A stretch of DNA of 63,628 nt, the filler included, from Jimgerdemannia flammicorona (lineage: Eukaryota): assembly GCA_003990765.1 (NCBI GenBank). It is 2 parts of 2 records of this genome, joined end to end, with 100 filler letters (N's around TTAATTAATTAA, not from the genome) between each part and the next. Parts side by side here need not be neighbours in the genome. Positions count along the whole stretch, not along the records: positions 1 to 31,764 come from RBNJ01000380.1; 1 more part is not named here. One strand, 5' to 3'. Every line of letters starts with the position of its first letter. Position 1 is the first letter of the stretch. Shown one piece after another: positions 900-33,340 of the stretch. The position numbers and the translations under genes are program-made. Below the pieces are notes generated by a model that was not told the DNA's origin, ran no database searches, and saw only the letters and a list, made by a program, of their open reading frames with translations.

Positions 900-1345
900 A
901 TGCCATCTGCTGTTAATTGGTTGTTCTAGTTATCAGCCTCATTTCTATAAACTATCAGTATTGAACAATAGATACTCTATAAAAGACTGTATTATTAAGC
1001 TAATAGTCAGGTTGCTCCTTAGTTCAAAGAACAATATTATAAGAATTAATTGCCAAAAATTGCTGAATAAATCATAATGAATACCACTACTACTATCTAA
1101 TTTTGGAAAAGATAAATAAACTATTATATGAATCACTATCTGATTTTTGAAGATATTTTTTGTCTGTGCCATTGCTATTAATTGATTGTTCTAGTTATCA
1201 GTCTTATTTATATAAACTATTAGTATTAAACAATAGATACTCAGTAAAGAACTATATTATTGAGTTAATAACCAGGTTGCTCCTTAGTTCAAAGAATAAT
1301 ATTATAAGAATTAATTACTGAAAAATACTGAATAAACCACAGGTT
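900..1345 (+). repeat. Tandem duplication (~180-bp unit, ~270-bp period) in the element A internal region
   Basis: 901-1080 and 1167-1345 align (ttgttctagttatcag...gttgctccttagttcaaaga...aagaattaatt). Confidence 0.85.
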
Positions 1346-1399
1346 ACATAACCTTTGGAAGGTACTTACAACATCATTTTTGGAGAAAAGAGACTAACA

Positions 1400-3402
1400 A
1401 CATAGCGACTGACAGACAATCTGAGGTATGTACTGGGCAGGGCAGCCCAAGCACTTTCGAATGGCAGTAGGTAGAGAGAGGCCTGGACCTGGGGGGGGGT
1501 ATGAGGGGGCTGCTGGCAGGAGGATGTGGAAGAGGTGGAGGTATTGGTAGCAGACAAGGGTCTGGGAGAGCAAGCTTTGTGGAGACAGTGAAGGGGAGGC
1601 AGCAGGCATCAGGACTGGAGGGCTGGCTGAGGAGGGGTAAGGAGACTGAGAAGGTGGTGGTGTATGAGGGAGTAGCTCTTGGAAGAGGGAGCAGTGGAGC
1701 TGAGGGAGTAGTGGCTGGGGGGAGTGTGACTGCTGATGGCAACAGGACTGCTAATCTGAAAAAAAATCTAGATGTGATGGCTGTTGGCGAGGCTGAGTAG
1801 CTGAGGCTTGGAAGACAAGGGGATTTGGCAGATGGTGTGATAGGCCTGGCAGTGGCCCCATTACTCAAAAAATTTATCTTGGCATTTATGGTCACACTGT
1901 ACTTCTGGGGCTTAGTGGTGATGACAAAAATGGTGCTGGGGCTTATTGCTAAGCAGGTGGCAGAAGCTGCGTCAGTGAAGTTTTTGAAGGGACTGAAGGG
2001 TGTAGAGGTGGGTTTCGAGAAGGCTGAGCTGCTGGAGGAGGTACTGAAGGTTGGGTTAGTGGTTGGGGAGGTGTGTATTCTGATGGCAAGGTGCCTGAAA
2101 TGGGATCTGAGGGTAGTCCAACTGCTGGTGAAAGGAGTGTCCACAGTGATGGTGATAGAGACAAGAAAGAGAGTTGAGAATGTCATGGCAGAGTATGGCA
2201 AGGTGGTGGATATAGAATTTAGGGTCTGGGAAGGAATCTCACTCAGGACTGGGGATGTGGATGTAAGGATTCGGCTGGCTGGAAAAGAAGCTACTAGGAA
2301 GGCAAAGAACTGGCCTTCAGTGATGGTCTGGGGAGTAATCTTATGTAAGGTGATGAGGGTAAAAGGGAGTGAAGAGGAGGAAGAGGATTTATTGGAAGTG
2401 CTGGAAGAATTGGATGGTGCTGTAGAGCAGCGAGCAAAGGCTTGAAAGGCTTTCATGGAGTCGACACACCTGGAGGTAGTGAATGGAAAGAGGATTCAAG
2501 TGGACAAGGTGTAGTGGGAAAGAGCTCAGGGATATAAGAGACAGAAGAATCTGTTGGCTAAACTGGAGAGCAGACCACAAGAGGATGTGAGTAAGATAAC
2601 AGGTGTGGCAGGGGCCAAAGTAAGTGTCTGGGCTGGCAAGAGGAGTGGGAATGCTGGAGAGGAGAAAGGGAAGGCAAAGGAGGTGAAGATTATTGACCCA
2701 TATGCTGATGGCACCTTAGAGGTTTGGGATGAGGTCTGGGAGGATTCCCCCACTCCTTCTCCTCTTATCAGGTAAGGCCCAGCTTCCAGAAACAAGATGG
2801 TAGAGGACATGACAATGCTGGGGACCCATTGGGTGAAATTTGGCATTCCAGAGGTAATGAATGGGGGACATGTGGTGGTGGCCGGGGAGGAGAAACTGGT
2901 GGATGTCCTGGAGGTGTGGGATGAGGCTGCAAGTACTAGAGCTGACACCACAATGTTGGATAGAGGGAGGCTGGTAATCCCTGGAGGGAAGGAGGTGGGG
3001 AACCTACTTTGGATGTATAGGATGATGAATAATCTGGTGGCAGAAGAGTTGGGGGAGGTGGACTTGCAAGTGATGAGTGATGAACACTGGATGCAGATAT
3101 TACAGGGGGATGGAGTAATGATGGCACTGAAGGCAGAAATTCTCGTGGTGTATCTGGAGGAGGAAGGGTATGAGGTGGACAAGGAGTGGGAGGCAGAGAT
3201 GGCAGTTGTCACTAGGGAGAGGGCTGAGTACTGTTGGAACAAGTGTCATAGATTGCAGCTTTGGCAGGAGGCCTGCATTGAGTACCAGGAGGAGTTTGAG
3301 GAGAAGGCAGATAGGGAGATGAATGAGCTGTTGGCTGGATTGGAGGCTCAGAGGGCTGAAGAGGAGGAGGTGATGGCAGAACATAATCTGAACACAGTAT
3401 AG
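1400..3402 (+). pseudogene. LINE ORF1 (RRM-like region VMAEYGKVVDIEFRVWEGISLRTGDV), disrupted by stop codons
   Basis: ORF-track pieces 1501-1800, 1825-2445, 2554-2775 and 2797-3402 share one frame and lie directly upstream of ORF2. Start position uncertain. Confidence 0.7.
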
Positions 3403-6402
3403 GAGGAGATGAGCATGGAGTAGTAGAGTTCAACTGATAACAAATCATATTTCATTATGAACAGTATAACCAACATTCTTTCTTTGAATGTGAATAGGCT
3501 ACAGGGCACTGTTAGATGTAGGAACATTTTTATTTAGCTGAAGGGATTGGAGGCTGATCTCTTCCTCTTGCAGGATGTCAGGTGTGAAAATGACTCTGAT
3601 AGGATGGAATGGACAAAGGAATGGAGTGGCATGGTGATTTGGAATGGCAAGGTCAGGATTCTGGTTTGGAAAGACAGAGGGGAGATAAGAGATGTGAGGA
3701 GCTGGGGGGAGAGACTGGTCTGGGGTGAATGGATTTATGCAGGCTGGGAGCCAGTTATAGTTGGCTCCTATTACTGCCCTGCCATAAGGGGGGAGTATGT
3801 AGATTGGGTGAAGGGTCTCCAGGAGAGTGAGACCCTTGCAGAAGCTGGGGTAGATGTGCTTGGGGGAGATTTCAATATGGTTTGGGATATACAGTTGGAT
3901 AGAACTGATGGCAGATGGGGTGCTGAGAGCAGGAGTAGGGGGCTGGTGATGTGGGAGGAAGTCGAAGACTAGGAGCACTGGTAGATGCTAGTAGGGAGTA
4001 CTGGGGGGATAGAAGGATATATACACATTGGGCTGGAGGCCTGGGGACAAGGATTGACTGGACTCTGACAGCCAACTATTGGGGCTGAGATGTTTGGAAG
4101 TCACTGGAGATAGAATGGTGTCCATGGTCAGATCACTGGGGCCTTTTGGGACAGGGGTGCTTTGGGGGAAGTAGGGATGGGCCTGGACATTGGCGCCTAA
4201 ATTCCTTCTTATTAGATGATGAGTCCTAGTGAGAGGAGTAGACTAAAGACATTCAGCTGAGGGTGGAGAATTAGCAGCAGGAAGGTGCCTCAATTGGGGT
4301 TTGGTGGATGAGGATGAAAGAGATGGCCAGGATGTACTGGAGTGAGGCTGGCAAGGAGACAGGGAAGTAGCAAAGACAGAGAGTGCACTGGGCTTCTACT
4401 AGATTGGCTAGGCTTCTGGAGGAGTGGGTGAGACTGACGAAGGTGGAGAGAGAGGAAGATTGGAGAGTAATGAGGGTAAAGACAGAGGTTGGAGAACTAC
4501 AACAGGTGCTGCAGGAAGAGGAAGAGGTAAGGGTGCAAAGCTTGATAGCACAGCTTCGTTGGCAGAGACTAGAGGAAGGGGAGAGGCACTCCAAGTTTCT
4601 CATGAGGACCCTTAGGGTGAGAAGGATACAGCAATGGTGGGAAGGGGTACTTGACTCAGATGGTATACTAGTGTATGGTATACAGGATATTCTTGGATCA
4701 CTGAAGGAGCAATGGAGTGGATTGTAGAGTGAGGAGGAGAGTGGGGCAGATGCTACTGCCATTGACTGAACTTTGGAAAATTGGCACCCATTATAAGTTG
4801 AGGGACTAGGTGACCTAGTGATGCCTGTAAAGGAGGATGAGATCCACCAGGTTCTTGCCATAACAGCCTCAGGTATAGTACCTGGGGAGAATGGCCTACC
4901 CTGGGACTTCTGGAAGTAAATGGTTGGAGTCCCAGATATGATAGAAGAGGTGATGGTATTGTGTGACTCTATATTGCAGACAGGGAGATAGGTGGGGGAG
5001 CAGGATCTTAGGCTGGTGATGCTGCTTTACAAGAACAAAGGAAGGTAAGAGGATTGGAAGAACTGGCAGCCAATAATGTTGTTAGATATGAACAGAAAGT
5101 TGGTGACTAAGGTGGTGGTTGTGAGGCTACAGAAGATAGTCCAGCAAGTTATAGGTATTGAGCAGAGGGGATTTGTGGGTGGTCAGCTCATTAGAGATGG
5201 CATAGCCTGGGTATATGGAGTTATTGAAGGGGCTAGAGCCTGTGGACTGGATGGGTGACTAGTCTTCTTGGACTAGGAGAAGGCTTATAACTGGGTGTGA
5301 TGAGTCTGGCTGGTGAAAGTCTTGGATAGAATGGTGGTTCTGATCCAATTTCAGTCAGCAATGGTCAGCCTACTGGAAAGAAGTAGGGCTGTACTCATGT
5401 ATAATAGGTATAGAGGGGTAGTATTCCCTCTGGGTAGAGGGGTGCCCCAGGGGGGCCCACTATCCCCCATCTTATATACTCTTTCCCTAGAACCCCTAAT
5501 GGACAGAATTAGACAGAGGATTGTGGGGCTCTCTATCTATGCTATTGGGTGGAAAGTTGGGGCCTTTGCAGATGATATGGTGGTTGGTCTGAGATCGATT
5601 GCTGATGTCGAGGAGCTCAAAAAGACAGTGGAGTGGTATGAGGAGAACTCTGGAGTGAAGCTGAATTGGCATAAGTGTGAAACAATGATGCTAGGCAATG
5701 GCCTGGTAGGAGGAGACATCATAGGAACAATTGTCCCCACCAGTGAGGCAGTGCAGTACTTGGACATCTATTTGTCAGTCTATGGGTCAGTTCTGCCTAG
5801 GCTTTGGTGGGAGCAGTGAATTGGAATTTGGGAGGAGGACCTGCAGAGTTGGGGGGGAAGATATTTCTCTCTGGCAGGACGGATTTTGATTTTAAATATA
5901 TATTGGCTGCTGAAACTGTGGTATTTGGCTTATCATCTGGACTTCCCAGCCTAGGTGGTGAAGAGATTGGTGAAGGTAGCCAAGGGATGGATCTGGGCTG
6001 GCAGATAGAGTCAGATTGGTTGGGAGATCTTGTCCCTACTAGTGGCAAGAGGTAGTCTTGGGATGGTGGACTTTCCCAAATAACTACACTGCTTGAGGGT
6101 ATGGTGGCTTAAGAGGGCAGTGGAGTTGCAAGAAGGGGGGTTGGGTTCTCCTGATACAAAAGGTCTGAGAGTGGTGGTCATCACTGAGAGGCTCAACTGG
6201 TGATCTTCTCTCATTGGTTGAACTTCAGAACACTGCACAATTGTGATATAAAGGTTTCTGGTGGGGGATAGTAAAGGGGGCACACCACATTGGTATTCGC
6301 TGGCAGGGGAATGAGGGAGAGGAGGCTTGGGACCTGGTGATGTAGAGATGGGAAGGCATTCTACTGAGTGGTGTGCCTTTACTTGAGTTCAATATTGGTG
6401 AT

Positions 6403-8470
6403 TGTAAGAGGGTTGCTTTTTTATAGTAACCATTACATAGTTCTGGAAGAGTTCTCTGAAAGTTCTGGATGTTCTGGAAGACTGTTTTCTTATGGTCAAG
6501 ATCAATTTCATATGGAGTACGTCCTCTATGCTTATTGATTTCAAGATTGGGTTGACATCTCAACCAAAGTCCTTTTTTTGGACTAGTTCTGGATGTTCAG
6601 GATTTTCCATATTTCAGGAAGTTCAAGAAACTAAGACCAGCTTAGTTGAATTGGCATATCACTACAGACAACACCTAATTAGGAAATTTCATGATGGGGT
6701 TAGGAGTGGGACCTAATGGGAGCGGATTTACTTAAGAGTGGTTTGTGGATTATTAAATAGATTTATTTGTTATTCATGATATTGCTATACTAGAAGTTGT
6801 TGTATGAGGGGATATTTGTGGGGAAGTGTTCAGGAATGTTCTTGTGTGTTTGAGTCTGAGATTCTGAGGACTGGGGGAGGGAGTATTTATACTAATGAGG
6901 GGCTATCTGGACTATACTAGATATGGATATAGCACTAAGTACTTTGCTGAGTTAGAATACAGTCACGTAGTATAAGTGTGATCTGACATATCAAGAGATC
7001 GTCTGACTGCTGAGTCAGTTCACAGTTACATCATATAATACTAATCTAACTATACTATGACTGCTAGGCTATTTATGGGTTTAGACACTGTCTGGGTAGT
7101 TCTCGATAATATCACTATCAATTGCATCATCTCTGATGAAGTAGTCATCTAGGAAGAGTGGTTTGTGGATTACTTCTCCTTGTTCACTGAGATAATAATA
7201 TATTGGAACTTCATCACCATCCCACAGAATAGTATTGTCTGTCTCATATGCTGGATAAGGTGTTGGTGGGCAAAGGAGGGATACATCATCTTTGCTTTCA
7301 TCAGATTTACTGTCTGCATACCTTCTGTAGGTTATAGCACTATGAGTCATGGGGTTGTAGTAAGCTGGTGGCTGTGGTTTATATTGTTCATACTTGGGTG
7401 GTGGAGTGGTTGGTTCAATCTCAAGGGTTGTCTGGAGGTACAGGTTGTGTTCTCCAGTCTCTTCATTATAGTTGAAGTAATTAGGGGTGAACACAGGTTA
7501 GTATTCATACTAGTGGTCATTGTCCCAATAAGTCTCGTATACTGTTATGAATTGTTGTAAGTTTATTGACAAGGTTGATGGTATGATCAGGGTTGGCAGA
7601 GATCCTTGACTAGAGATCATGTCAGCATCAGAGGGATCATTGTCTTCTGCTTCATCTTCATCAAAGTAGATTATATCATAGATATTCTTCATGGTACATA
7701 TATCCAACTTGGGGCATTTGCAGGATATGATCATTGGGGTGTGGGAAGGTTCTGTCTGTGGTTTTGATATACTTGAGGTACTTGTGGTTGAGTTCTTGTA
7801 TCATGTTGTCGATTTGGCCATAGGATAGAGTAGCAACCATTTCAGCTATGGTAACTCAGAGGCAGAGAATAATGATGCTATACTCATAGAAGAGTTCTCA
7901 ATGTTTGCGGGCAATGAGCTTCTGGTGTTGAGACATCTGGGTGATGTTTATATTATAGTGGTGTTCAATCATGTCTTCTAGAAGGTAACCGATCTGGTAG
8001 TAGCTTGAGATTTGTCCGATTCAGTGGGCCTCGCTAAGCATATTCAGAGCATTCCATCAGGCTTCTACAAAGTAGAGGGGTGCTAGATTATGGATATTCA
8101 TGAGGGGCAGAGGGGGTGTGGCTCAGTTGACAATGGCATTCCAAATGTCAGTGCAGATACGGGTATAGATCTCAGTGGTCATGTTTGTATGTTTGGAAGT
8201 TGTAGTTATTGTTTGTTTTGGTTCTCTGATTCAATGCATCTTGGTGCTCAGTATATATGCATTTGATCATGATTGGTAAGATTCCATTTATGTAAATCTT
8301 ATATTCTGTGACTTTGTATTAACTCAGCTTTATGTGCTGTGACTTTGGTTTGACTCAGCTTCATGATCAAGCAGGTGATTTCCAGATTTGTTCAGAGGTC
8401 GCATGTGATTTCAGTGGCTTGTTCAGAGGGTGATGTGTAATTTCGGTGGCTTGGAGGTTGTGCGCTTACA
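6403..8470 (-). mobile_element. Solo LTR, family S copy 1 (2068 bp), carrying an internal ORF
   Basis: Termini TGTAAG...CTTACA with 5-bp TSD GTGAT (6398-6402/8471-8475). Reverse complement of 27383-29416. Confidence 0.88.
7081..8182 (-). pseudogene. LTR-encoded protein of family S (~365 codons ancestrally; MTTEIYTRICTDIWNAIV...DSDIIENYPDSV)
   Basis: ATG at 8182. Internal stops are consistent with C>T changes, and a 4-bp insertion near 7700 is absent from copy 2, where the frame continues across that site. Confidence 0.65.
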
Positions 8471-9954
8471 GTGATAGAATAGAATGCCAAAGGGGACCAG
8501 GACAGGATCTGTGGCCTTGCAGTTGGCAAGGTGTTGGAATTGGAAAAGAGTGGGACTGGTATGGTGTTTGGATCTGGAGTGCTATAGTGCAAAAGTAGAT
8601 GCCGCTGAAGTACTGGGTGGTCTGGTGGTACATGCTGAGGAGGAATATAATGCTCAACTTCCACTCAGAGTACCTTATCATAGGGGGTTGCTTCGACTAT
8701 AAGGAGTGCCATAATATAGGGTAGGAAGGGGGCTTTGTACAGATGTCAGAACATTGGCTAGGAGAGTGTGAGGTATTGGGAGACTTTTGGCAGGTCATCA
8801 GAGACCACTTGGGGGTGAGGTATAGGAGAGATGAAGTACAGAAAAGATGGGAGGACTTGAGGGATCGATTGGTAGGAGGGGTAGGAAAGGAGTGGATTAC
8901 CTTAGGTTGGGTGTTACATATAAATAGACTACCATGGAGAATTAAAAGACATTATATATAAATTGCTCAAGTAAAGAATACTATTATCTAACCTTTAATA
9001 ATATTTATATAAATACTATCTATTATAAACAAACTACCTGCCTATCATATAAATGCTAATGATATATTAATACTGTCTATTGTAAATAAATCTCCCATCT
9101 GTCATATAAATGCTACTTGACTTTTAATGATATATAAATACTACTCATCATAAACAAACCACCTGCCTGATATATGAACAGACTGCTGTTATCCACTACT
9201 TTTGAATATACAACCTATCCTGTAATATATAATTTGTTACCATCTGACTTTTAAAAGATATAACCTACTCCAAAGTCTGTACTCAATGAGTCTGGAAGAT
9301 ATCTTGCAATATACAATTTATCATCACTTGACTTTTAGAAGAAGCTATCACTAGAACTATTATCATCTGACTTTTGATAACATATATACTACTATTTAAA
9401 TTAATTATTTAAAGACTTTATTGGGATCTTGAAAAATATTCTGATAACTACTTGGATATAATATTATAAACAAGTATATAGGGAGAACAAATATATAAAC
9501 ATTATAATATAGAAATTTGAATAGATATTTTAATATCAAAATAATCTATTTAAAAAGAAGATATAATATATAGTATAAAATAAAAATAAGAATCAAGAGA
9601 ATAGACATTTAATTATAGTATAGAAATTATCTTTACTATAGATACTATATCTAAAACATTATTAGTAAAACTATTACTTTTATAAATTTCAGATAGGATT
9701 TTACATAAGATTCTATCTGAGATATAAATGGAATTCTACTGAGAATTTTACATAAAAAGACTTAATACTTAGCTATATATTTAGTAGCAGAATTAGTATA
9801 TAAATCTATATAAATAACCTAGTATTTTAGAGTAAATAAACCTCAGTTAGTCAGTAGAGTCAGTTTAGCTTAGTTATATATCCTTCTCTCTCCTTTATAT
9901 GAAATCCAAAATCTTACCAACTTACTAAGATCCATATCTATTATATTATAATAT

Positions 9955-15086: not shown

Positions 15087-18000
15087 TAAATATAGTATAG
15101 TCTTACAAATAGTAGTTATTTTACAAATGTTAAAGTTTTGACAAATGTTAACATTTTCACAAATATTGAGATTTTATAGATATTAAAGATCTAACAGATG
15201 TCAAGAATTAATACTTATACAAAGTAACTTACAAGAAATATAGTCATAACTTAGCTACCTTATAGCTAGCAAACTTATATAAATATCTCCAGTATCTAGA
15301 GTAAATAAACCTCAGGTCAAAAGTATTTGAGCCTCACTCTGGTAGTCTGAAAATGAGATCAGACAGATACTACTGGTAACTCTGAGAAGTCAAGAAAAGT
15401 TATAGAAATCTACTGCATTTCTCTAATTATATACCCACTATATTATAATTTAGTACCTATTGACTAGTAATTTAAGATGAATCCCTCACTTTCAAGCTAA
15501 ACAATAAACAACTGCTATCACCCAAACAACTATACAAATTAAACTAAGATATCTAGACAAGATAGATATAAGACTACCAGTATTTTATAAATATACTTCA
15601 GATGAATTAATTATTATCTTTATTGATGATTTTGAGCAATATGTTGCTATAAGAACCCTGATAGCAAGGTAGCAAGTAGCTCTCATGCTCTTTAGTCTCT
15701 GAGGCCCAGCAAGAGCAGCATTCACAGCTATAATCTATATGGGAAATAATAATAATGCTGTACTGACAGCATAGAAGACCTGGCTTAGAGCTATCTACTA
15801 TATAGATAAGATCAAAAAAGCTCTGAAGAATCAGCTCAATATAATATACTAAGAAATAAGTAAGAATTCAAATACATTTTATACCAGAATTTGATATTAG
15901 GTAATTCTTGCAGATTATAATACTAATATCTAAGATCAAGTAGCCAAGACAACCTTTATAAAGAGAGTCTACTCAGAAATAGTTATGGTCATCCACTCAT
16001 CATTAGTACTTGGACCTAGTATAGAAGGTCACCTATGTCCAGCAATACTGAATAGCCAGATATCTACAAGACTATACAATAGAAAGAGTCAAATCAAAAC
16101 ACTCAAAGCAACTAGTATAATCTCTATCATAGTGATCAATCAAAACACACCTCAACAAAGAGCTACTGAGCAGTAAAGAAATAGTGACTCTATGGAGGAA
16201 CTAGCTAAGAAGTTAGCTGAAATAACTACTCACTTAGAAGATATGGTAAAGGAAATCAGAGGAAGAGATTGTTATCTAGTTCAGAAGTTTGTCACTATCT
16301 CAGATAAGAAGAGAGGTACCTACTGTACTTGTGGAGAAGAAGGCTATTACTCATATGAATATATGAGTGATATCAAGTATAAGATATAGCCAAGTAATAT
16401 TATTTAGAATAGAGAATAGTATCTTTGAAGAAATTAGAGAATTTGATAAAGAAGAATGAGAGACCTACTCTGTATAGACCATCAAAAAGGATGTTTATAA
16501 GGAACTCTACAAGAGACTACTAGAGAGACCCAAGAAGAACCCAGTAGAGAAATAGATAGAAACTGCTATAGAGAGCCAAGCTGAAGAAATAGATCAAGAT
16601 ATAGAGCTTGAGTAAGTAGTTTAAGATATTATCTGAGAAACTACTCTAGTCTTAGCCAGTGAAGGAGAAAAGAAAAAGAAGCTTTATAAAACTAAGATCT
16701 TCAAGTATGATATCTTCAAGGACCTTAGCCAACAAAAGGTCAATGCAACCTTTGGCTAGCTAGCAGAAATCTCCACATTTAGACAGCAAATGAGATATGG
16801 ACTTGCTGAGACAACTAAGGAGTAAGATTGGAAGATAACTGAGGCTAACAATATTCAAAAAGACTCAGGAGAAGAAAGTGAAGATAACTACAAGATCTCT
16901 ACCTATGTAATCTGTCAAATTGAGAATAGAATCTTTAAGGCCATCATTGATACTGAAGCAGGAGGATGCCTCTTCAGCAAGAAAGCAACAGACTGCCTAG
17001 GTTGGGAGATTGAAGAAGCAACCAAGTTAGTATTTGTTACAGCAGATAGAATAAGAGCCACATCTCTGAAAAAGATCCAAGATGTTCCTATTAAGTTTGT
17101 AGAAATAACTATCTTAGTAGATATCATTATAATTAATACAACTAACTATAATATCCTTATCAGCAACCAATGGCTTCATAAAGCCAGAGTAATAATTGAC
17201 CTGAATGCTCAGAAGATGCAGATTATCTAAGAACAGAAGATACAAATTTCTGTCAATATCAATAAAGGAGTACTCACTGAAATAAAGAAAGAAGAAAGTA
17301 AGCAAGATGAGACTTATATAGTAACTATTCAGAAAAAGAAGAAGAAAGTTGGATAGATCAGTGAAGAAGACTGATATATATAAGAGAATTATTAAAGAAT
17401 ATACACTATAAGAAGTCTGCTCCTATAGAATTAAGATATACTATATAGAGCATGTCAATGATTGCTACTAGTATACTAGTGGAATCAAGAAGATTTATCA
17501 TAAAAGAAGACAGAAGGCCCTTGGGAAACAGACAAGAGAAGAGAAGGAGGAGAAAGAGGATAATGAACCACCAGCTCTTCTAGAAGACAGTAATGATAAA
17601 GAGAAGATCAAGGTTAATATTTGGAAAGTTCACCCTAATGTAGTCCTACATACCAGAATACAAGTCAGAGAATATAGCTAGAATAGATATTACTATAGTA
17701 GAAGAAGCTGTACTCAAGTTCCAGACAACTATCCTACTTACAACTAGTCTAGAGATAACTATTCCAAAAGACTATATCAGAATTCTCAAGACAAAAAGTA
17801 GTCTAGCCAAGAGTGAGATTACTATCAAAGAAGGAGTCATCAATTTGAATTATATCAGAGAAATACTGCTCATTGTCAGGAATCACAATTCTACAATTCC
17901 ATTTCTAATCAAGAAGAAGAACTAACTAGTGCAGATATTAATCTTCTCAGTTCTTTAGCCAAAGATTATAGAAGTTAAGAAGTTGGAGGAAATAGAGAGA

Positions 18001-18778
18001 GAAAGGAAGAAATTCAGATCTATAGAAAGAAGAGTATTTGCCAGTACCAAAATCACTGAACTGGACTACAAGAAGGAGGAAACTACAAATAAGTATAGCT
18101 ATACTATTGGAAATAAATTTCAACTCAAGAAAGAACTCAAGAAGATACTCTATGAATTCAAAAATGTTCTGATCACAGATTTCAAGAACATCAAAGGAAA
18201 GATCTCACACTACTATTGTGATATAGATATAGAGAATACTGAACCAATCTACTAAAAAGCAAGACCAATTCTACTAGTCTACTGTAAATAGCTCAGAGAA
18301 AAAATTAAGCAGATAGAAGAAGCTGGTATTATCAAAGAAACCAGCAGTCCTTAGGCTTTACTAGTTATACTAGCTCTGAAGAAAGGAAGCAAACTAGGAG
18401 AATTTGCCCTAAGGCTCTATATCAATTATAGAAAACTTAATATAGCTACTAAGAAGAATTATCAACTACTGCCTCTCATTAGTAACATTATTATGATCTT
18501 GGGAGATGAAGTACAGTATTATAGTACTTTGGATTTATACACAGAATTCTATCAAATCAGTCTCACAGAAACAACAAGTGAGAAGTCAGTCTTTATCACT
18601 CTGGATGGAATCTATGTCTACTTATGAATATTATTCAGAATATATAATATACCAGTAAGCTTCCAGCAAATGATAAATAAAATCTTCCACTATGATATAG
18701 AAAGATAGATAATGGTTTATATAGATGATATTATCATCTACAGTAAAATAGCTAAAGAATATCTATAGCATATCACTG

Positions 18779-19677
18779 ATGGGGCACATCACATCAGTAT
18801 TCATTGGCAGGGAGATGAGAGAGGAAGACCTTGGGGTCCAGCAATGTAGAGATAGGACCAGGTGTTGCTGGGGAGTACTCTTCTTGGTGACTTTGATATT
18901 AGTAATGGGGTTGAATGCCAGAGGGGGTTGGAGCAGGATCTGTGGCCCAGCAGATAGCAGTTAGTGGGTGTTGGTGAAGAGTGAGACTGACAGAATCTGG
19001 AACTGGAGTACTGAAATTTGGCAATGGTTGCTATCAAAGTATTGGATAGTCTGGTGGTACATATTATGAAGGAATATCATACTCAATTTTCACTCTGGCC
19101 ACCTGGTGGAAGGGGGAACTCTTGACTGTGAGGAGTACTATAATGTTAGACAGGAAGGGGGTTTTGTATAGATATCTGAACATTGGCTAGGGGAGTATAA
19201 GGTGCTCAGTAACTTCTAGATAGCAATTGAAAAGAGATTGGGTATCATGTGGAGGGGAGATAATATGAGGGGTCATTGGGAGGATTTGCAGGATAGACTG
19301 GTGGGAGGAGTTGGGAAGGAATGGCTCACTTTAGAGTGGGTGCTGACTGTATGAGTAGGGCTGGCAGAACACTGGCTATATGTGTTTGAGGATGAGAAAT
19401 ATCTGGACTAGAGGAATGATTGTTATGATAGGAAGGACTGATAGAGGATACTCTGATGGGTTGGTGGCATGGGTGGAGACTGTAGAGTGGTCAGCAGTGT
19501 TATTTGATAGAGAAGATATACAGACAGAGTGGGGGAAGAGTGGGAGTTGTGGGAGATAGAGTGATTTTTAAGTATAAAGGGGTGGAGGGAGGGGGGGATT
19601 CCTCTATGAGAATTAGATAGTAGGAGGAGATAATGTAAATGTATGTATAGACTGTAATAAATGGCTAAGTCTGAGTG

Positions 19678-19726
<49 letters not shown>
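18779..19726 (+). mobile_element. 5'-truncated L1/Tx1-like LINE 3' end with poly(A) tail
   Basis: Homologous to 8475-8912 (EHWLGEY; DRLVGGVGKEWLTL). A44 run at 19683-19726. Confidence 0.9.
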
Positions 19727-19731
<5 letters not shown>

Positions 19732-22700
19732 TAAAGCAAAATGTTCAGAATTTTGAGAACTTTATCTTCATTACTATTATCAAGACTAGAGGTTGGGATA
19801 TCTTTGAAGGAGATAAGATCAGTAAATGTTTCTGTAAGCATCACATCTATTTTGCATTTTGCATATATATATTAATTAGCAGGATGATGTTATCACTAAT
19901 GATGTCATTATATTTAGTAATGGTAAGAGGAGTAAGGAGATTAGAGGCTCTCCAATCTATGACATTTTTCTTCACAAAGTAGGGGATAAAGATGGAATCT
20001 TGAGAGAGTCTAATCTGGATACTGGGGTCTTAGAATATTGATCTAGATTATTCTAGAGAATGAGATTCTAGAACTCTTCTATTTATCACTTTTGAGAGTA
20101 ATGATAAATTGGACTTCTGTGGCCACCATGGCCTCTAGTATATATATCTATATAGTGAGCTAATAATTTCTTGAAGTTTGAGACTCTAGTATACTTTAAG
20201 TTGGAGATTGATCAAAGTACATATCTAAAGACCTGATGGATCTTTTTGACTACTTTCAATTTATATATATCTATAGAGGTATTATTTTGTATCTCTTAGA
20301 GGCTGATCTGAGAGAATTCCCAGTAGAGGTTTCTTATTTCATATATATTTCTGCCACATCCAGAGGCATTCAGTAGTAGTAGTAATCCTTGTCTCTATTT
20401 CATAATGGTAGAGAGTAAAGTGGTAAGGGTCATCAGTACCCAGATTGAGACTAGGAATCCTTCTAGTATAGGTTCTTATGACTCTTCTGATGTCTTGGAA
20501 CATCCTTTCTTGGACTGAGAAGTCTTGGTAGTTTCTTGACCTTACAGTTTGGCAAGTAGTAGGCATTTTATTTATAGTTAGTTTTTCAAACTATTTCAGG
20601 ATTTTGTAAGTCTTGTTTGAGTTACTACTATTGCAGTTTCCTGGTCTTTCTTTTATATTCCTTAAGATATATATCTTGTAGTTATCATGATTCATAATTG
20701 GTCATTATTACTCATCTTATAGCCTAGATAAGTCATACTATATAATCTCTAATCTAGTAACTTATAAGAAAAGACTGTCTCCTGTGATAATATCACTATT
20801 CTGAGATCACTATTACATATTCCTCCTGAATAAGGATCTTCTCTTGAATATCCTTATTCATTGATCTAGTTTGAAAAATTTTCTAATCTTATAACCTCTG
20901 ATAGGGGGTCAAAAAGTAGTATTTATAGACTGGTATCTTCCTTATGTATTTTGGCATAATGGTAAAGAGTAGCTCTCTTTATATAGAGCAAGGGCCTGAT
21001 TCTAATCTTGATTAATCAATTGATGATTTAAACTTCTCTGACTTCAAAAGTCTTATAGATGAGTAGTTACTAGTACCATATCTCTTATAAAATAGTCCAG
21101 ACAGATTGCCTACTAGTTACAAGATATGCTGTTATAATTTACAAACTAGAACCTTATGAGTGGTTATTATATTTTACTTCTCTTATATAGGTTCATGGTA
21201 CTTCTTGAGTTTGTTTCTATATACCATAGTAGGCAGTATAGTCCCTGAGAGTTTTTTAAGCCAGAAGATAGTTCTCTTGATATCTTGTACATAAAAGGGT
21301 CCTTTTCATTTGGGCTCCAGTTTTCATGACCATAAGGTTTCTACTATATTTGATATAGTAGAATATTTTCTCCAATTTGAATAGGTTTTAGGGTCTTGTG
21401 ATTCTTTTCTGCATTCTTTCTTATTAGTACTTGTGACTTGATGATGTAATCTTCTGCCTTCTTTCTGATTTAGTATAGTCTCCAGATTTCTGAGTCAATC
21501 TGTTACTAAGTTAGGTAGCTGAGATTCCATCAGAATCTTCTTCTCTAAAGAGCAGTTCTCTTAGAGTAAAGTATGTACTTTATAATCATATGTCTTATAA
21601 GATAGAGAGGACAGTTGGAAGGTAGTTATCTCAATTCTCATATGTGTCTGAGATCTTAGCCAAGATGTTCTTAAGGGTCTTGTTTATTCTTTCTCTCTGT
21701 CTATTTTCTTGAGAGTAATATATAATAGTCTTAATATGCTGAATCTTGTATTTCTAATATATTATCTCATAAAATCTGTTGACAAATTCTGTACCATAGT
21801 CTGTGGTGATTTGTCTTGGTATCTTGTAGTGACAGATGATTTCTCAGTACAGGAAGTTAGCAATAGAGAGAGTATTGGCTTCTTGTAATGCTCCTACTTC
21901 TATCTATTTGGTAAAGAGATCTATAATAACTATAATATAGTAGTTTCCTGATAAAGTTACTGATAGTAATTTAATGATATTTATTGTGATGTGGTGGAAG
22001 GAGATAGATTCAATTCTTGATAATCTAGATACCTGGTCTTACTGATCTTATTTCTGTTTTTAGCACTTATTACATCCTTTGACAAATTAGTACAAGTCTT
22101 CTTCCATCTTAGGCCACCATATAGTTCTTTTTGTCTTGTTATATATATTGATTTCTTCTAGGTATCCTTGTTTATGTACTTTCTTCATTACTTGATACTT
22201 CTTATATTTGAGTATGATGAGCTTTCCTTCTTTTCTGAGTATGGTGTTATTTAGTTCAAATTGTTTCTAAGTCTAGTTGATGATAGTGATAGTCCAGAGT
22301 TTGAGATAGTTGGACATCTTCTACTGCCCAAGGTAGCTGATTAATTTATAGTATAGCTTCTTATTCATATTGAATAGTCTTGATGAGGGTATTTTGGGAT
22401 ATTCTTGAAAGTATATCAGCATTAGCATTAGTTCTTTCTGAGTGGTATTTGATAGTACAGTTATACTCTTATAGTCTGTAGATCTATGTATCTGATATAT
22501 ATTCCTTTGGGGTTCAGAGTGTGAAATAGCTAGGTGAGAGCAGAATGGTCTGTTTGAATAGTAAAGTATTTCCTAGCTAGATAGTAGTGGAACTTATCTA
22601 CTGTCCAGACTACTGCTAACCATTCAAGCTTGTATGACTTATAGTTTTGTTCTGCTCTATAGATACCTCAGCTTATATAAGAGATGATATATTTATATCT

Positions 22701-25700: not shown

Positions 25701-28700
25701 TCTCTAACAATGTCACTAAAGTATACAGTCATCTTGGTAAACTACTGGGTGAGTTCCTCCACTGGATCAGCTTTGGTCATCTTGGGGGTAAGGGGGAATA
25801 GTTGTCTATTAAGGGCTATGGTAGGTATGATACTGGTTGGTTTTGGTAGCTCCATCTTAATGCCAGTTATCCTTTCTATTGAGTATTCAACAGAGTGTCT
25901 GGCAGTCTAATATCTCTATATAAAGACCACTTTTTAATCAAGGGTCAGAGTAGCTAAAGTAGACTAGATTGCTAGAGCAATTTCATAGTGAACTCCTTTT
26001 AAGAAGGTTGAATTAACTATCTATTCCTTAAGAATATTATCATAGTCAGCCAAGATAATCTGATAGCAGATTCAGATATAGAATGAGTTGGGGTCTTTAT
26101 TAAGTTCTTAGTAGATAGTGTTGAGTTGATCTTTGAGAGCTTGCTTGATCTCTTTAATATAGTATATAGTTCTAAGAAAGTTCTTTATATTAGTGAGTTT
26201 AGCTGTACTCAGTATTCAATGGTAGCTATATTGAACTTATCTCTGATAGGTCCTCTGAGGCTGATAGATAGAAGGGCCAATTATACTTCAACATTAAGAG
26301 CTTATATAGCAACAAATTGTTCAAAGTCTTCAATAAAGGTCAGAATTGCCTCTTCAGTAATAAATCTATAGAATGTGGGAGAATGTATTTTCATCTTGTC
26401 TTGAATTCTTACAGAGAGTGACTCTTATAATCAGGGTAGTTATTGTAGTAATTGTTCATTATTCAGCTTAAAAGTGAGGGATCCTAATAGTATCACCAGT
26501 CAATGAGCACCAAGTTATTATATAGTGAGTACTAGATTCTCCAAGTATATCAGATTCTCTTCAAGATATATCTCTTAGACCAACTATAAGTTTCTTATAA
26601 GCAAGTTCTATTAGAGTGCCTTTATGTAGTTCTCAAACTTCTTATCTTTAAACTATTTTATTATCTTCTGGATTTACTTATATAGAATTGAGTAGAGGAC
26701 TAGAACTCTTATACTCTTGAGTGTTTTAATACTGACTTTATTTTAAAGAAAATGAGAGAAGTATTTATACAAAATATAATTCAATAGTTACTAAGTTATA
26801 AAACTAAATATAAATTCTAATAACTAAATAAATAAGATACAAACTTCAGGTTGTAAGTACAAATTTGAGTGCCTATATAAATGGTTATATAAGATCAGAA
26901 TGTCAGAATAATTTTAATAGTTATATAAAGAACTTAGAGCAGAAGGTTCAGAATCCTGAGGACTTTATCTTTGTTACTATTATTAAGATCAGAGATCAGA
27001 ATATCTTCAAAGGAGATAAGGTCAGCAAATGTTTCTATAAGTATCACATCCATTTCACATATTTTATATATTTTGTATATGTCAATTAGTGGGATGACAT
27101 TATCACTGATGACATCATCACATTTGGTAGCAATAGAGAGAGTAAGGAGATCAGAAGCTCTCTAATCTATGACATTTTTATCTACAAAGTAGGGAATAAA
27201 GATGAGATCTTGAGGAGGTCTAATCTGAATATTGGAGCCTTAGAATACTGAGATTATTCCTTATAGGAATTAATTTGAATTATCCTAGAGGATGGGATTC
27301 CAGAACTCTTCTACCTTATTACTTTTGAGAGTGATAGTGGATTAGACTTCTGTGGCCACTATCGTCTTCAGTACATCTATATTATAAGCATAAAATCTCC
27401 AAGCCACCAAAATCACACATCACCCTCTGAACAAATCTGAAAATCACTTGCAAGATCACAAAGCTGAGTCAAACTAAAGTCATAGAGTACAAAGTTGAGT
27501 CAACTCAAAGTCATGAAACATAAGATTTATATAAATGGAATCTTACCAATCAGGACCAAATGCATATACTCAACTCTTAGATATGTCAAAATAGAGAATC
27601 ATAATAAATAAAACAAACAACCACAACTCTTGAATATATACAAACATGACCACTGAGATCTATAACTACATCTGTACTAACATTTGGAATGTTATTGTCA
27701 ACTGAGCCACACCCCCTCTACCCCTCATGAATATCCATAGTCTAGCACCTCTCTACTTCATAGAAGCCCAATGGAATGCCCTGAACATACTTAGTGAGAT
27801 CCACCAAATTAGACAAATCTTAAGCTATTACCAGATTGACTACCTCCTAGAAGGTATAATTGAATACTATTATAATACAGATATTATCCAGATATCTCAA
27901 TATCAGAAACTCATCTCTCACAAATACCAAGAACTCTTCTATAAGTATAGTACCTTTATTTCCCACTTTTGAGTTACTACTACTGAAATGGTTGCCACTC
28001 TGTCCTATAGCCAAATTGATGATATGATACAAGAACTCAACTACAAGTATATTGAGTACATTTAAACTACAGACCGAACCTTTCCACACCCTAATGATCA
28101 TATCCTGCAAATGCCCCAAGTTAGATACACCATAAAGGATATATATGATATAATCTGATTTAATGATGATGAAGCAGAAGATAATGATCCCTTTGATACC
28201 AATATGACCTCTAGCCAAGGATCTCTACTAACTCTGATACTCTGCCAACCTTGTCAATAAACTTATAATAGTTCATAAACACCTACAAGATCTATTGGGA
28301 TAATGACCACTAGTATGAGTACTAACCTGCCTTTACTCCTAATTACTTCAACTATAATGAAGAGACCAGAGAACACAACCTGTACCTCTAGACAACCCTC
28401 AAGATTGAACCAACAACTTCACCACCCAAGTATGAGTAACATGAAGTATAACTATCAGTATACTAAAACTCTGCAACTTATAGTACTGTAACTTATAGAA
28501 GATATGCAGACAGCAAATCCAATGAAAGCAAAGATGATGTACCTCTCCTTTACCTACTAACTCTATACTTAGTATATGAGATAGATGATACTATTCTGTG
28601 GGATAGTGACAAGGTCTCAATATATTATTATCTGAGCAAATAGAGAGAAGTAATCTGAGAACCACTCTTCCTAGATGACTACTTCATTAGAGATAATATC

Positions 28701-29557
28701 ATTGATAGTGATATTATCAAAAACTATCTAGATAGTATTTAAATCTATAGATAGCTTAGCAGTCATTAGTATAGTTAGATTAGTCTTATATAACATGACT
28801 GCCAACTAACTCAGCAGTCAGATGATCTCTTGATATATCAGTTCACACTTATACTATAAACTGTATTCTGACTCAGTAAGACACTAAGTACTACATTCAT
28901 ATTTAGCCTAGTCTAGATAGCCTCTCATTAGTATAAATACCCCCTCCCCCAGACCTCAGAATCTTAGACTCAAATAGATAAGAACCATTTTGAACACTTT
29001 CCCACAATATCCCTTTACACAACTACTCCTAGTATAACAATATCATAAATAGCAAATAAATCTATTTAATAACCCACAAATTACTTTTAAGTAAATCTAC
29101 TCCCTATTAGGTCCTACTCCTAACTCTGTTATGAAATTTTCTAATTGAATATTGTCTGCAGCAATATGCCAATTCAATTAAGCTGGTCTTAGTTTCTTGA
29201 ACTTTCTGAAATACAGAAAATCCTGAATATCTAGAATAAGTCTGAAAAAGAACTTTAGTTGAGATGTCAATCCAATTGAAATCAATAAGTATAGAGAATA
29301 TACTCTATACAAAATTGATCTTGACCTTAAGAAAACAGTCTTTCAGAATATTCAGAACTTCCAGAAAACTCTTCCAGAACTACATAATGGTTACCTTAAT
29401 AAGTAACCCTCTTATATATATGGTGGGCTGATAATTCCTTGAAGTCTGAGACTTTGGTATACTCTAAGTTGAGAATTGACCAAAGTATATATCTGAAGAT
29501 CTGATAGCTCTTTTTGGCTACTCTCAATTTACATATATCTATAGAGATATTATCTTG
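19727..29557 (-). mobile_element. Ty3/gypsy element G3 (same family as G1), both LTRs truncated, 5' LTR interrupted by solo LTR S2
   Basis: 3' LTR 19727-20817, PPT 20818-20827, internal region 20818-26515 colinear with G1 (gag, PR, dUTPase 23827-24231, RT, RH, IN), PBS 26495-26515, 5' LTR 26516-29557. Confidence 0.9.
27383..29416 (+). mobile_element. Solo LTR, family S copy 2, with degenerate ORF 27646-28742
   Basis: Termini TATAAG...CTTATA (mutated TGTAAG/CTTACA), 5-bp TSD TATAT (27378-27382/29417-29421), colinear with the reverse complement of 6403-8470. Confidence 0.88.
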
Positions 29558-29588: not shown

Positions 29589-30958
29589 CACTTAGACTTT
29601 CTCTTTATTACCAATTATCATCTAGTCTATGTTATATTAATATAAAGATACTGACATACCCTTCACCTAATCTCATATAGACCCCCTACTCCCCCTCTCT
29701 TTCCCCTCTACCTAGAAGTCACCAACTCCCCAACCCTGCTTCTCTTACAAATACATTCCTTAAGTCTTCTATAGCCTCTCTCTCCAGATCTCTATCTCTA
29801 CCACTACTCATTCAAGATATCCATCATTAACTACTCTCATCTTGTAACTCTTATCCCAACTACTAATTACTAACCCTCTTTAAATATATAGTACCAATGT
29901 CCAGTAAGCTCAATCTAAATGGCCAGAGCCCACCCCAAAGTCAGTCACTTATCTCTTACTCCAATTACTAATCTATGCCAAAGATTACTCCACCTCCCCC
30001 CCTCCTCACTCTTTAATAATTGCATCTCTAGAAAGTTCTTAATAACCAATCAGTAGTCTTCCAAAACCTTACACTCCCCAAGCCAATGTTCAGGAGTCTG
30101 TGCCACACCCCTCACCTATCCAATATCTAGACACTCCTTATACTCCACTATACTCCCTTCTACTAAGTATCCTGATTAGTAGTTTAGCATAATATTTTGC
30201 CTCAAAATCCTCTACCATACTACTCAGAACTTGGGGGAGAGCTATCTTGCCACCTGCTTGCCTCAAGATCAGACTCTATTCTAGTCCTACTCTTCACTAA
30301 TCTCCATCCTCTGCTATACTTCTAACTACAAATCCCTGTCATGCTCCCTCAGATATTCTATGCTATCTTCTAGCTAAAAATCCTCTACCAGCATACCTCC
30401 TAACAGTAGGCAGTCCTATCTCCACATCTGCAGTTCCCATTTCTCCTCCCTCTCATTACCCTACCAGTAAATATCAATACAGTGAGTACCATCCACCACT
30501 CCCTACCAGAATCTCTTATAGTGTATCTTCTTACTTCCTTTAAGAGCTACCAGAGAGAGCAGGTCACCAGTTATATTTCAGAGAGAGTATCAAGCTTCCC
30601 ACACTCTCTGCATAAGGGGCACTCACTCTTGACCCTGCAATTCACTTGTCTGTTATAGCCACTATGTTCTCAGGCAATGCAGATGCTTAGTGAAGTCTAC
30701 CAGGCCTAGCCCACCTCTGTCTACTGGTAGTATCAATATCTTTCAGCTGATCTGACTCCTCCATCTCACTCAGATCTATGACTTGGTCATTTCAATAGCC
30801 TCTTAACCACTTATACCAGAAAGCCTAAGTAATACCCTATATACCATAGCTTTGGCAGCTAGTATATATTCAGTACCATTACTCTCTCTGCCAGAGAGAT
30901 GTACTGGCCTCCCTACTTCATAAGAACATTCCCTCAAGCTAATAGTCACTGCTCCCAC
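29583..30958 (-). mobile_element. L1/Tx1-like LINE 3' fragment
   Basis: Minus strand encodes QTPEHWLGECK (~30070-30100). Its 3' terminus AAGTCTAAGTGACTATAA matches the end of the copy at 19667-19684. Confidence 0.8.
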
Positions 30959-30992
30959 TAGTGCATCGCAACCTGAGCCGACCCGTGTACAT

Positions 30993-31240
30993 ATTTAACC
31001 CGACCCGGAATTATACGTCACCCGTCTTTAACCCGACCCGGAATTATACATCACCCATCTTTAACCCGACCCGGAATAATACGTCACCCATCTTTAACCC
31101 GACCCGGAATAATACGTCACCCGTCTTTAACCCGACCCGGAATTATACGTCACCCATCTTTAACCCGACCTGGAAACGTACATCACCCGTCTTTAACCCG
31201 ACCCGGAATTATACGTAACCCGTCTTTAACCCAACCCGAG
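30993..31240 (+). repeat. 33-bp tandem array (~7 copies), CpG-intact
   Basis: Unit TTTAACCCGACCCGGAATTATACGTCACCCGTC. Confidence 0.95.
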
Positions 31241-31764
31241 AAATATACGTGACCCGACCCAAGAAATATACGTGACCCGACCCGTATTTAACCCGACACA
31301 GACCCGTCTTTAATCCGCCTTTAAGCTACAAGACACCAAAAAAAATATATTGCACATCTAAGATATATTTAGAATAAACAAACAGAAACATAATTAGGAA
31401 TCAGAAATCAAAATGAAATCGGAAATAAATAGGAAGTAAATCAGGAAAATAAAGAACTTACCGGTGTGAACAGATCTTACTCTTCATCGCTATAAACCAA
31501 CTGATCCTCCTCTTCATCGCTATAAACCAACTGATCCTCCTCCTTCTCATATTCCGAACCATCTTCCTCCATATATTCCGAACCGCTTTCCTCTATATCC
31601 TCCTCCTCCATATCCTCCTCTGGGCCGACCTCCTCCGCGCCAACCTCCATTTCGTCCTCCGCGCCGACCTCCCCGTGTTCCTCCGCGCCGACCTCCCCCG
31701 CGCCGACCTCCCCATGTTCCTCCGCGCCGACCTCCCCCGCGCCGACCTCCCCATGTTCCTCCGC

Positions 31765-31864
31765 NNNNNNNNNNNNNNNNNNNNNNNNNNNNNNNNNNNN
31801 NNNNNNNNTTAATTAATTAANNNNNNNNNNNNNNNNNNNNNNNNNNNNNNNNNNNNNNNNNNNN
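31765..31864. other. Assembly gap with artificial TTAATTAATTAA spacer (31809-31820)
   Basis: 44 N + 12-mer with stops in all six frames + 44 N. Confidence 0.95.
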
Positions 31865-33134
31865 CCAAAAGCCACTTGATTCAGGAAGGATTGCAACACT
31901 TAGGAGATACGCCTGCCAACGAGCCACTGCCAAGAAGTTGTGAGCTTGGTTCTCTTCTCTTCCACTCCGGTCCACTTTCCGATACAAAGCTTGAAGATTT
32001 GCCGCCAAGTTCAAGGAAGAACTTTGCCGCCTTTGGAACTATTGGTTCGCTTGCCAGATAAGCCTGAAGTTTCCCACCCAAGTTCAAGGAAGAACTTTGC
32101 CACCATTTCCCAGTTAGAAGCCCGCCGATTCAGGAAGAGTCCGCGCCATCCGAGTTATCCGAGTTATCCGCGTTACCCGCCGCTTTGAGTTATCCACCGT
32201 ATTCCCAGTTGAAGCCAATCTGCGCCATCCGAGTTAATTCTCAGTCAAGCCGCCGTTTTCAAGAAGCCCACCAAATCCGCGTCGTCCGCCACTTCCGAGT
32301 TATCCGCATTCCCAGAAAACCCACGTCATCTGAGTAGTATTCCCAGTTGAAGCCGAAACCGCGACATCCGAGTTATTCGCCATTCCCAGTGAGCCCGGTA
32401 TAGAAGAATCCACGCCATACTATTCCCAGTGAGCCAAACCGAGCTATCCGCCAGAAATCGTATACTTTTGGAAACCCGCCATGCTACACAAAGATCGCTC
32501 GCTACCCAAAAAGGAGAACCGCCAAATTGCCAGACCGTCACGCTACACAAGATCGTCTCCCAGAAATTGCACACTTTTGGAGATCGTCGCGCTACACAAA
32601 GATCGTTGCACCAAGACTGTCACCCAGAAATCGCTACACAAAATTGTACCATTCCCAGTTAACCCAAGAAGGAAAAGACATACAAATCGCCGCTACACCC
32701 AGAGAACCGTCCCAATAAGGAAATCACTTGCACAGTATCCAGATTTTGACTATTATACCGCTAAACACCAAGAACATTTTGTTGCTTTTAACAAAGTAAC
32801 TGGGGGCTCAAGCCAAACTACATCAACCCCCAACCTTGTAATTTGCCTCCATTGAGCTGGCACGTTACACTAGTGAGCTAGTGACTGAATGTTGAAACAG
32901 CTTGTGTGTAAATACAATTCATGCATACATGTATTTAGATTCTTAATAGTCTTCAGATATTTTTCACTTCCAATTACTCTGAATATTATCCAAATATTAT
33001 CTGAATTATTTTTTCAGGGCAGAGTTCAGAGGGTCAAGTTCAGGGTCAGGTTTAGGAGTCAGATTCAGGGTCAGGTTCAGAGATTGAGTTCAGGTTTGGG
33101 TTAAGGATAAATAATGGATTAGGTGATATATATT

Positions 33135-33340
33135 TCCAGGTCAGATTAAAGATGAGTTATGTTTAATTCTGGGTTAGGTTAAAGATGGGTAATAAATCTT
33201 TCTGGATTAGGTTAAAGATGGGTGATGTATAATTCTGGATTAGGTTAAAGATGGGTGACATATAATTCTGGGTCAGATTAAAGATGGGTGACATATAATT
33301 CTAGGTTGGGTTAAAGACAAGTGACATCTAATTCTAGGTT
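33135..33340 (-). repeat. Inverted, CpG-deaminated copy of the 33-bp array
   Basis: Units such as GGATTAGGTTAAAGATGGGTGATGTATAATTCT equal the reverse complement of the left unit with CG>TG/CA/TA changes. Confidence 0.9.

Follow-up and report, generated by a model that had tools for sequence, protein, structure and literature searches.

Probable solo long terminal repeats in Jimgerdemannia flammicorona with a decayed gene, most likely in U3

A 63,628-nucleotide (nt) stretch of the Jimgerdemannia flammicorona genome (assembly GCA_003990765.1; two parts joined across 100 filler letters, positions 1 to 31,764 being from RBNJ01000380.1), referred to here as the window, contains two copies of a 2-kb repeat, family S, which are probably solo long terminal repeats (LTRs) of an LTR retrotransposon whose LTR holds an accessory gene. 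About half of the S LTR would consist of this complete gene of ~365 codons, situated between the LTR 5' end and a TATA-like motif (GTATAAATAC) that is followed by an AATAAA polyadenylation-signal motif, and based on this order of motifs the gene is most likely in the unique 3' region (U3) of the LTR. S probably derives from a Ty3/gypsy-like family whose layout makes it a sister of family G, which has a full-length member in the window, and we infer that full-length S elements exist.

Two independent insertions with LTR-like ends

The two S copies (Table 1) share 81.1% identity over 2028 nt, in an alignment of 2078 columns with 1662 matches, 362 mismatches (313 transitions and 49 transversions), and 54 gap columns. 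Copy B is the more decayed, with a single CpG remaining, and its termini (TATAAG...CTTATA) equal those of copy A (TGTAAG...CTTACA) through G>A and C>T changes. The S termini are 5'-TG...CA-3' with a perfect 6-bp inverted repeat, as in solo LTRs. For the empty-site comparisons, S and one target duplicate were taken out and paralogues were aligned over the junction. At copy A, a second copy of the surrounding long interspersed nuclear element (LINE), at ~18781-19130, aligns unbroken (86/122 positions identical to the left and 148/221 to the right) and at ~18.9 kb possesses a single GTAAT at the target position, while at copy B three other G LTRs (both LTRs of the full-length element G1 and one extra G LTR) align gap-free. 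Copies A and B are genuine, independent insertions, as the initial annotation had proposed from the TGTAAG/CTTACA ends and the 5-bp target-site duplications; the duplications (GTGAT and TATAT, respectively) and clean empty sites at both copies also conform to what is expected of solo LTRs.

Both copies retain GTATAAATAC and, ~115 nt further on, AATAAA, an arrangement that on the motifs alone conforms to a U3-R-U5 structure (R, repeated region; U5, unique 5' region). The reading frame lies upstream of these conserved TATA and poly(A) motifs, where U3 is expected, in agreement with the U3 placement first proposed. The downstream TATA and AATAAA that had been marked previously are likewise present in both copies, though the AATAAA of copy B is found at 29045-29050 and not at 29055. 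No terminal direct repeats occur within S, whose internal direct repeats reach 31-34 nt at the longest and are either tandem or scattered. Neither an interior bounded by a primer-binding site (PBS) plus a polypurine tract (PPT) nor long terminal inverted repeats (TIRs) were found within S, such that it does not have the structure of a terminal-repeat retrotransposon in miniature (TRIM) or a large retrotransposon derivative (LARD), and searches of the window with tblastx and blastn returned no further S-like sequence.

Sites of the AP-1/Gcn4 type (TGAGTCA) occur at 8351-8357, 7011-7017, 27465-27471, 27496-27502, 28869-28875, 33431-33437, and 42576-42582, in corresponding positions: two upstream of the open reading frame (ORF) and one inverted downstream in S, and near the 5' end in the G LTRs. 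The motif is present 17 times in the window compared to 10.75 expected, a count that is reached in 2 of 100 shuffles.

A once-constrained gene that is closed in both copies

The ~365-codon ORF of the initial annotation holds as a 365-codon frame that was under selection in the past, but it is open in neither copy, and can be read only through seven stops and a 4-nt insertion in copy A and 14 stops and a 1-nt deletion in copy B. The longest ORFs on the sense strand are 137 amino acids (aa; copy A) and 81 aa (copy B). Three TGA codons of copy A read CAA in copy B, a pairing that decay of CGA on one or the other strand would produce. The mutability of CpG (0.88-0.91), CpA (0.45), TpG (0.33), and CpT (0.13) sites points to methylation-type CpG loss with an additional component resembling repeat-induced point mutation.

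Among 5.8 billion proteins the S ORF has a sole match, P0003, an intact environmental protein of 247 aa encoded on a 998-nt contig, which covers the C-terminal two thirds of the frame with 116/204 identical residues (57%; E = 1e-76) and conservative changes; searches of the large collections covered the S ORF from about residue 115 onward. The terminus of P0003, YPDS[VI], coincides with the end of the S ORF, and P0003 has tryptophan and glutamine at the positions of a TAG and a TAA that occur in both S copies. A mini-intron at this common TAG/TAA (GTATGA...TACTAAC) was considered and rejected, as P0003 is continuous there. With P0003 as the query, only P0003 itself was recovered, also in an exhaustive search of 1.84 billion representatives, and no relatives of the S ORF were detected among metagenome contigs or viral contigs.

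Transversions between the two copies carry the evidence for past constraint. Within the ORF, 16 of the 24 transversions fall at third codon positions and 13 are synonymous, compared to an expectation of 14% (binomial P = 4.2e-6). A neutral control is provided by the 5' and 3' LTRs of G1, which differ by post-insertion changes only and have accumulated 90 transitions and two transversions; the near-absence of transversions in this control indicates that most of the S transversions predate insertion and arose in lineages that were still replicating. Counts of synonymous and non-synonymous transitions and of changes by codon position were dropped because the neutral control is similarly skewed (27 synonymous and 40 non-synonymous changes, with few at second positions), such that transitions are biased even under neutrality. 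On these comparisons the S ORF was once a protein-coding, constrained gene, although the frame is now closed in both copies.

No significant Pfam family was detected in the S ORF proteins (P0001 and P0002), including no membership in Sag, and Pfam and PDB profile searches (0 hits) revealed no transposase or integrase signature. The Atlas model of P0003 has a predicted local distance difference test (pLDDT) value of 0.39 and no feature hits, and AlphaFold2 gave a mean pLDDT of 40.2 for the N-terminal part of S. Net charge is -36 for P0003 and -20 for P0004, an intact homologue of the G-type ORF described below, with aspartate and glutamate making up 25-32% of the last 60 residues. The N-terminal part of the S protein is probably helical, and its tail is very acidic, rich in aromatic residues, and probably disordered; that it serves the element as an accessory protein in regulation or as an adaptor is a guess.

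A full-length gypsy element with the same LTR plan

Family G provides the comparison for the layout of S. G1 is a full-length Ty3/gypsy element (35270-43979) with the domains gag zinc knuckle (zf-CCHC), RVP_2, dUTPase, RVT_1, RT_RNaseH_2, and a weak Integrase_H2C2 in the pol order of gypsy elements. Read from the 5' end, its 1.52-kb LTRs have TGAGTCA and TATAAAA, then a sense-strand ORF of ~250-270 codons and tandem repeats, and finally GTATAAATAC, AATAAA, and another ~230 nt. S shares the identical GTATAAATAC motif and the same order of elements.

The G-type ORF is kept in all five of the G LTR copies in the window and has six environmental homologues (P0004-P0009; 61-75% identity), of which P0004 (247 aa) is the one that is intact and full-length. 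These homologues have a conserved core in common, and their indels, in the acidic tail, are all in frame. AlphaFold2 modeling of the G ORF alignment resulted in a mean pLDDT of 33.7, and in the Atlas comparison P0004 scored no higher than 0.86, against unnamed Basidiomycota clusters, a result that is no more than a lead. No homology between the S and G ORFs was detected with hhalign (probability 0.1%).

An extra, more diverged G LTR is located at 33404-34851, ~420 nt ahead of the G1 5' LTR, and the piece between it and G1 matches inverted G leader sequence. G1 lacks a clean 5-bp duplication, its flanks being TCTAT and CTATC, which suggests recombination between elements.

S in public sequencing runs

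Parts of S are present in fourteen public runs, mostly soil metagenomes, with shares of at most 0.22, and four of these (X1, X3, X9, and X10) were aligned to the window with a likeness cut-off of 80%. These data show S to be a high-copy repeat; for X1, with 3244 aligned contigs, depth is ~420-2650 inside S compared to ~80-215 in bins with flank only. Differences between the runs and the window are mostly an A or T in the window against a G or C in the reads, which identifies the copy in the window as a decayed family member.

Five X3 contigs leave the S 5' end with a common flank (agreement 0.81) that on the S strand reads ...AAGAAGGGGAGAGT immediately ahead of TGTAAG, and this sequence has the appearance of the polypurine tract expected to adjoin a 3' LTR. 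A search of the window for a purine tract joined to the LTR start returned 0 matches. Along with the TG..CA ends, the 5-bp duplications, and the G1-like layout, this flank is in line with the solo LTR status initially assigned to S.

In X10 and X1, abundance or conservation is greatest over the stretch that runs from just past GTATAAATAC almost to the LTR end, and in X10, which may be DNA, depth rises from ~12 to 930-5049 just after the motif. The step fits a conserved R-U5 block that starts after GTATAAATAC and is no proof of a start site.

Proposed origin, spread, and expression of the LTR gene

If S is the LTR of a retrotransposon, reverse transcription would copy U3 to both ends of each new element, resulting in two copies of the gene, and recombination between the LTRs would leave a solo LTR with one full gene copy. 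A full-length S element would have the tract AAGAAGGGGAGAG adjoining its 3' copy. Copies A and B inserted independently, in a LINE and in a G LTR, and were inactivated thereafter by heavy C>T/G>A mutation that changed nearly all CpG and ~45% of CpA sites. The gene would most likely be expressed from the 3' end of element transcripts or from a subgenomic RNA that is spliced and terminates at the poly(A) site of the LTR; a separate promoter close to the TGAGTCA repeats is a weaker possibility.

Several observations weigh against this account. No full-length S element was found in the window, among metagenome contigs, or among viral contigs, nor does the window hold a direct pair of S repeats around a PBS-gag-pol-PPT interior. 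The environmental homologues of both ORFs (P0003 and P0004-P0009) are encoded on short contigs (0.8-1.6 kb) and may or may not lie in LTRs. The purine-tract flank is known from five short contigs of one run, X3; two X9 contigs have a different flank, AGAAGGGTCTTTT, before TGTAAG, and no recurrent flank was present at the other S end among the loose ends listed. The S and G ORFs have no detectable homology, and their like layout could be the result of convergence or of ORF replacement. The function proposed is a guess, with both structure predictions below 41 pLDDT. Finally, four stops (codons 20, 109, 223, and 227) are common to copies A and B, and the source element of both might already have been defective; parallel changes at hot CpG, CpA, and TpG sites are a plausible origin for these stops.

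The most serious alternative, though itself unlikely, is that the LTR is a complete gene unit, with a promoter in the first ~250 nt (at the TGAGTCA sites and, in family G, TATAAAA) and the ORF in a very long R or in an LTR-internal transcript. GTATAAATAC...AATAAA would then represent 3'-end signals, every LTR would yield an ORF mRNA of ~1.5 kb, and read-through would produce the genomic RNA. TATA-rich elements with AATAAA also suit fungal polyadenylation signals, the contigs encoding the homologues (RNA or DNA) are about the size of such an mRNA, the three aligned plus-strand G LTRs all have TGAGTCA ~35 nt ahead of TATAAAA and then the ORF, and two TGAGTCA-type repeats are upstream of the ORF in both S copies. 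However, the TATA-like motifs upstream of the S ORF are decay products. The upstream TATA that the initial annotation had placed at ~27528-27535 is present as TATATAAA in copy B alone, while copy A reads TACATAAAT; at window position 8290 the A of copy A is replaced by G in 159/202 of the depth in X1, 17.4/19.4 in X3, and 23.6/23.6 in X9, and likewise at 8301, such that most other copies have C on the S strand where copy A has T, making the upstream TATA a product of C>T decay. The promoter that it had suggested is an artefact of this decay, leaving the idea of a self-contained expression cassette unproven for S. Further, the greater abundance or conservation past GTATAAATAC in X10 (which may be DNA) and X1 suits an R-U5 block that starts there, and we know of no precedent for an R of ~1.4 kb.

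A wider form of this idea, in which a fungal Ty3/gypsy clade uses its LTRs as gene carriers, with each LTR an independent transcription unit for a trans-acting acidic protein, is also doubtful. Were it true, at least two families would have placed different, non-homologous, strongly acidic orphans at the same LTR position, each unit with control sites of the TGAGTCA type upstream and with 3'-end signals supplied by the LTR itself. The proteins could act, for example, as LTR transactivators or as blockers of host methylation or of the C>T defense, and the solo LTRs would constitute a dispersed reservoir of accessory function.

It is very improbable that S is a self-contained 2-kb mobile unit, either a DNA transposon with short TIRs or an LTR-less retroelement. 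The window contains S as solo units only, each with a single ORF and a perfect 6-bp inverted repeat (TGTAAG/CTTACA) at its ends, and 5-bp duplications are also generated by some DNA transposon superfamilies. This inverted repeat is limited to 6 bp, short of the TIRs of DNA transposons, and the ORF, which lacks a transposase or integrase signature, specifies an acidic protein with a largely unpredictable fold. The layout is that of the LTRs of G1, a proven full-length gypsy element, and in X3 the 5' end has a recurrent purine-tract flank. The suggestion that these units transpose as such finds no support in S, where a PBS/PPT-bounded interior, long TIRs, and a transposase or integrase signature are all lacking.

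Least probable of all is that the frame was never a functioning gene of the element, being either a chance or relic frame in a non-coding LTR or a functionless fragment of a captured host gene: both window copies are closed, four stops are common to them, and no homologue was found in annotated families, but P0003 is open over 247 codons at 57% identity with conservative changes, there is a strong excess of synonymous transversions, six intact or partial homologues with in-frame indels exist for the parallel G-type ORF, and no host-gene relative occurs among 1.84 billion representatives.

Comparison with known LTR-associated genes

Accessory ORFs in U3 are familiar from retroviruses, including sag of mouse mammary tumor virus (MMTV) and the nef and bel/bet genes that overlap U3. 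The sag frame is 3' of pol and the purine tract and upstream of the LTR promoter, and is consequently in both LTRs. The S frame is similarly within the part of the LTR upstream of the presumed LTR promoter. The likeness is in gene position only, as the S protein has no similarity to Sag or any Pfam family; unlike the retroviral U3 genes, S and G reside in a fungus, in LTR retrotransposons that lack env, and two families have non-homologous ORFs at one place. By analogy, the S and G ORFs may be viewed as fungal counterparts, in elements that lack env, of the U3 genes found in complex retroviruses.

Additional ORFs (aORFs) of LTR retrotransposons, including plant Ogre/Retand/Tat, bdelloid, and Botrytis brtn elements, are described as extra genes beside gag-pol, obscure in function and often lineage-specific orphans, that separate gag from the LTR before it or pol from the 3' LTR (PMC7264820, PMC6431247, 10.1101/2021.04.13.439636). 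In the plant aORF review (PMC7264820), phrases that place aORFs in, inside, or within the LTR, or the word 'overlap', are absent. The S and G ORFs resemble aORFs as orphan extra genes and differ in being inside the LTR; with aORFs outside the LTRs, the solo LTRs of aORF elements would be left without the gene.

The Cassandra, Helenus, and Ajax TRIMs possess small-RNA genes inside their LTRs, and fungal Helenus elements have 5-bp duplications (PMC10886601). In common with S and G, these elements have a gene-like unit inside the LTR that spreads with every LTR, including solo LTRs; a promoter of its own is a feature of the TRIM units. The TRIMs are tiny, non-autonomous elements with sequences derived from pol III small RNAs, whereas S and G have a protein gene of 250-365 codons in LTRs of 1.5-2 kb and belong to elements of an apparently autonomous type.

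Other fungal Ty3/gypsy elements with a dUTPase include Phanerochaete elements and Tuber Tmt1. In the PosPlaTy3-5 elements of Postia, the dUTPase is located between the protease and the reverse transcriptase (RT), as it is in family G, and a figure legend in the same source marks an 'add. ORF', while the passages available make no mention of an ORF inside the LTRs (PMC2864245). A literature search by wording alone found no retrotransposon LTR described as containing an entire protein ORF.

LTRs are usually treated as non-coding control regions, and here two families would each have a whole conserved gene inside. Each transposition would generate two gene copies and each LTR-LTR deletion would leave one, such that gene dosage would follow LTR number and the accessory function could outlast the element itself. 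Annotation pipelines would encounter many orphan 'hypothetical proteins' that are parts of LTRs. The two acidic orphan families are candidates for a role in LTR transcription or in the evasion of genome defense, which is directly testable.

Table 1. Coordinates of S, its reading frame and motifs, and the G-type comparators in the window
Feature	Position	Strand	Remarks
S copy A, 2068 nt, solo LTR-like	6403-8470	-	TGTAAG 8470-8465, CTTACA 6408-6403; within LINE
S copy B, 2034 nt	27383-29416	+	Inside ORF of the 5' LTR of G2, a reverse-oriented gypsy element
Target-site duplication GTGAT, copy A left	6398-6402
Target-site duplication GTGAT, copy A right	8471-8475
Target-site duplication TATAT, copy B left	27378-27382
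Target-site duplication TATAT, copy B right	29417-29421
Decayed S ORF, copy A, 365 codons + stop	7081-8182	-	In frame: 5 TGA, 1 TAG, 1 TAA; 4 extra bases at 7697-7700
Decayed S ORF, copy B	27646-28742	+	14 in-frame stops; one base lacking opposite window position 7585 of copy A
GTATAAATAC TATA-like motif, copy A	6883-6892	-	3' of ORF; presumed LTR promoter near U3 end
GTATAAATAC motif, copy B	28931-28940	+	Identical in copy A and G LTRs
AATAAA poly(A)-signal motif, copy A	6762-6767	-
AATAAA motif, copy B	29045-29050	+
Two tandem 31-nt repeats, each with TGAGTCA-like site	8299-8360	-	Upstream of copy A ORF
Inverted copies of 31-nt repeat	6946-6976, 7009-7049		Downstream of copy A ORF
G1 5' LTR (comparator)	35270-36792	+	G-type LTR ORF 35512-36321
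G1 3' LTR (comparator)	42458-43979	+	Preceded by purine tract AGGAGGAAGA; ORF 42699-43508, one stop
G-type LTR ORFs	33552-34355, 35512-36321, 42699-43508	+
G-type LTR ORFs	19734-20566; 26937-27389 + 29417-29557	-	Second ORF split by S copy B

Genomic setting

Two regions make up the window: nested transposons form a 46-kb block, and a gene-bearing stretch adjoins it (~46-63.6 kb). The genes there, every one of which has small introns of the fungal type, code for Sec5, a WD40 protein, a TPT transporter, and Ytp1/DUF2427. The gene stretch has a GC content of 50-58% and an observed/expected CpG ratio of ~1, while in the transposon block GC falls to as low as 24% and the CpG ratio is 0-0.1 nearly throughout, except for 0.4-0.5 in the bins at 28-36 kb. 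The CpG-free repeat block meets the gene region at long A-runs (45396-45538), where the CpG ratio jumps from ~0 to ~1.

Two arrays of 33-nt tandem repeats (30928-31271 and 33122-33352) are mutually inverted and ~1.9 kb apart, and between them are a C-rich repeat with 24/15-nt periodicity that retains CpG (31566-31769) and a run of N. The arrays and the C-rich repeat form an island with a CpG ratio of ~0.5 within the CpG-free block.

The LINE-type element interrupted by copy A spans ~1400-6402 and 8476-~9300 on the plus strand, with RVT_1 at 5304-5819, and its sense strand has a strong excess of G over C (GC skew up to 0.5). The second, 5'-truncated LINE copy (~18781-19727) ends in a poly(A) run of ~50 nt (19676-19727) and truncates a third gypsy-like fragment (15437-18739; RVP_2 at 16826-17227), which is ~65% identical to G and has an LTR-end/leader motif in common with 756-831 and 36782-36857.

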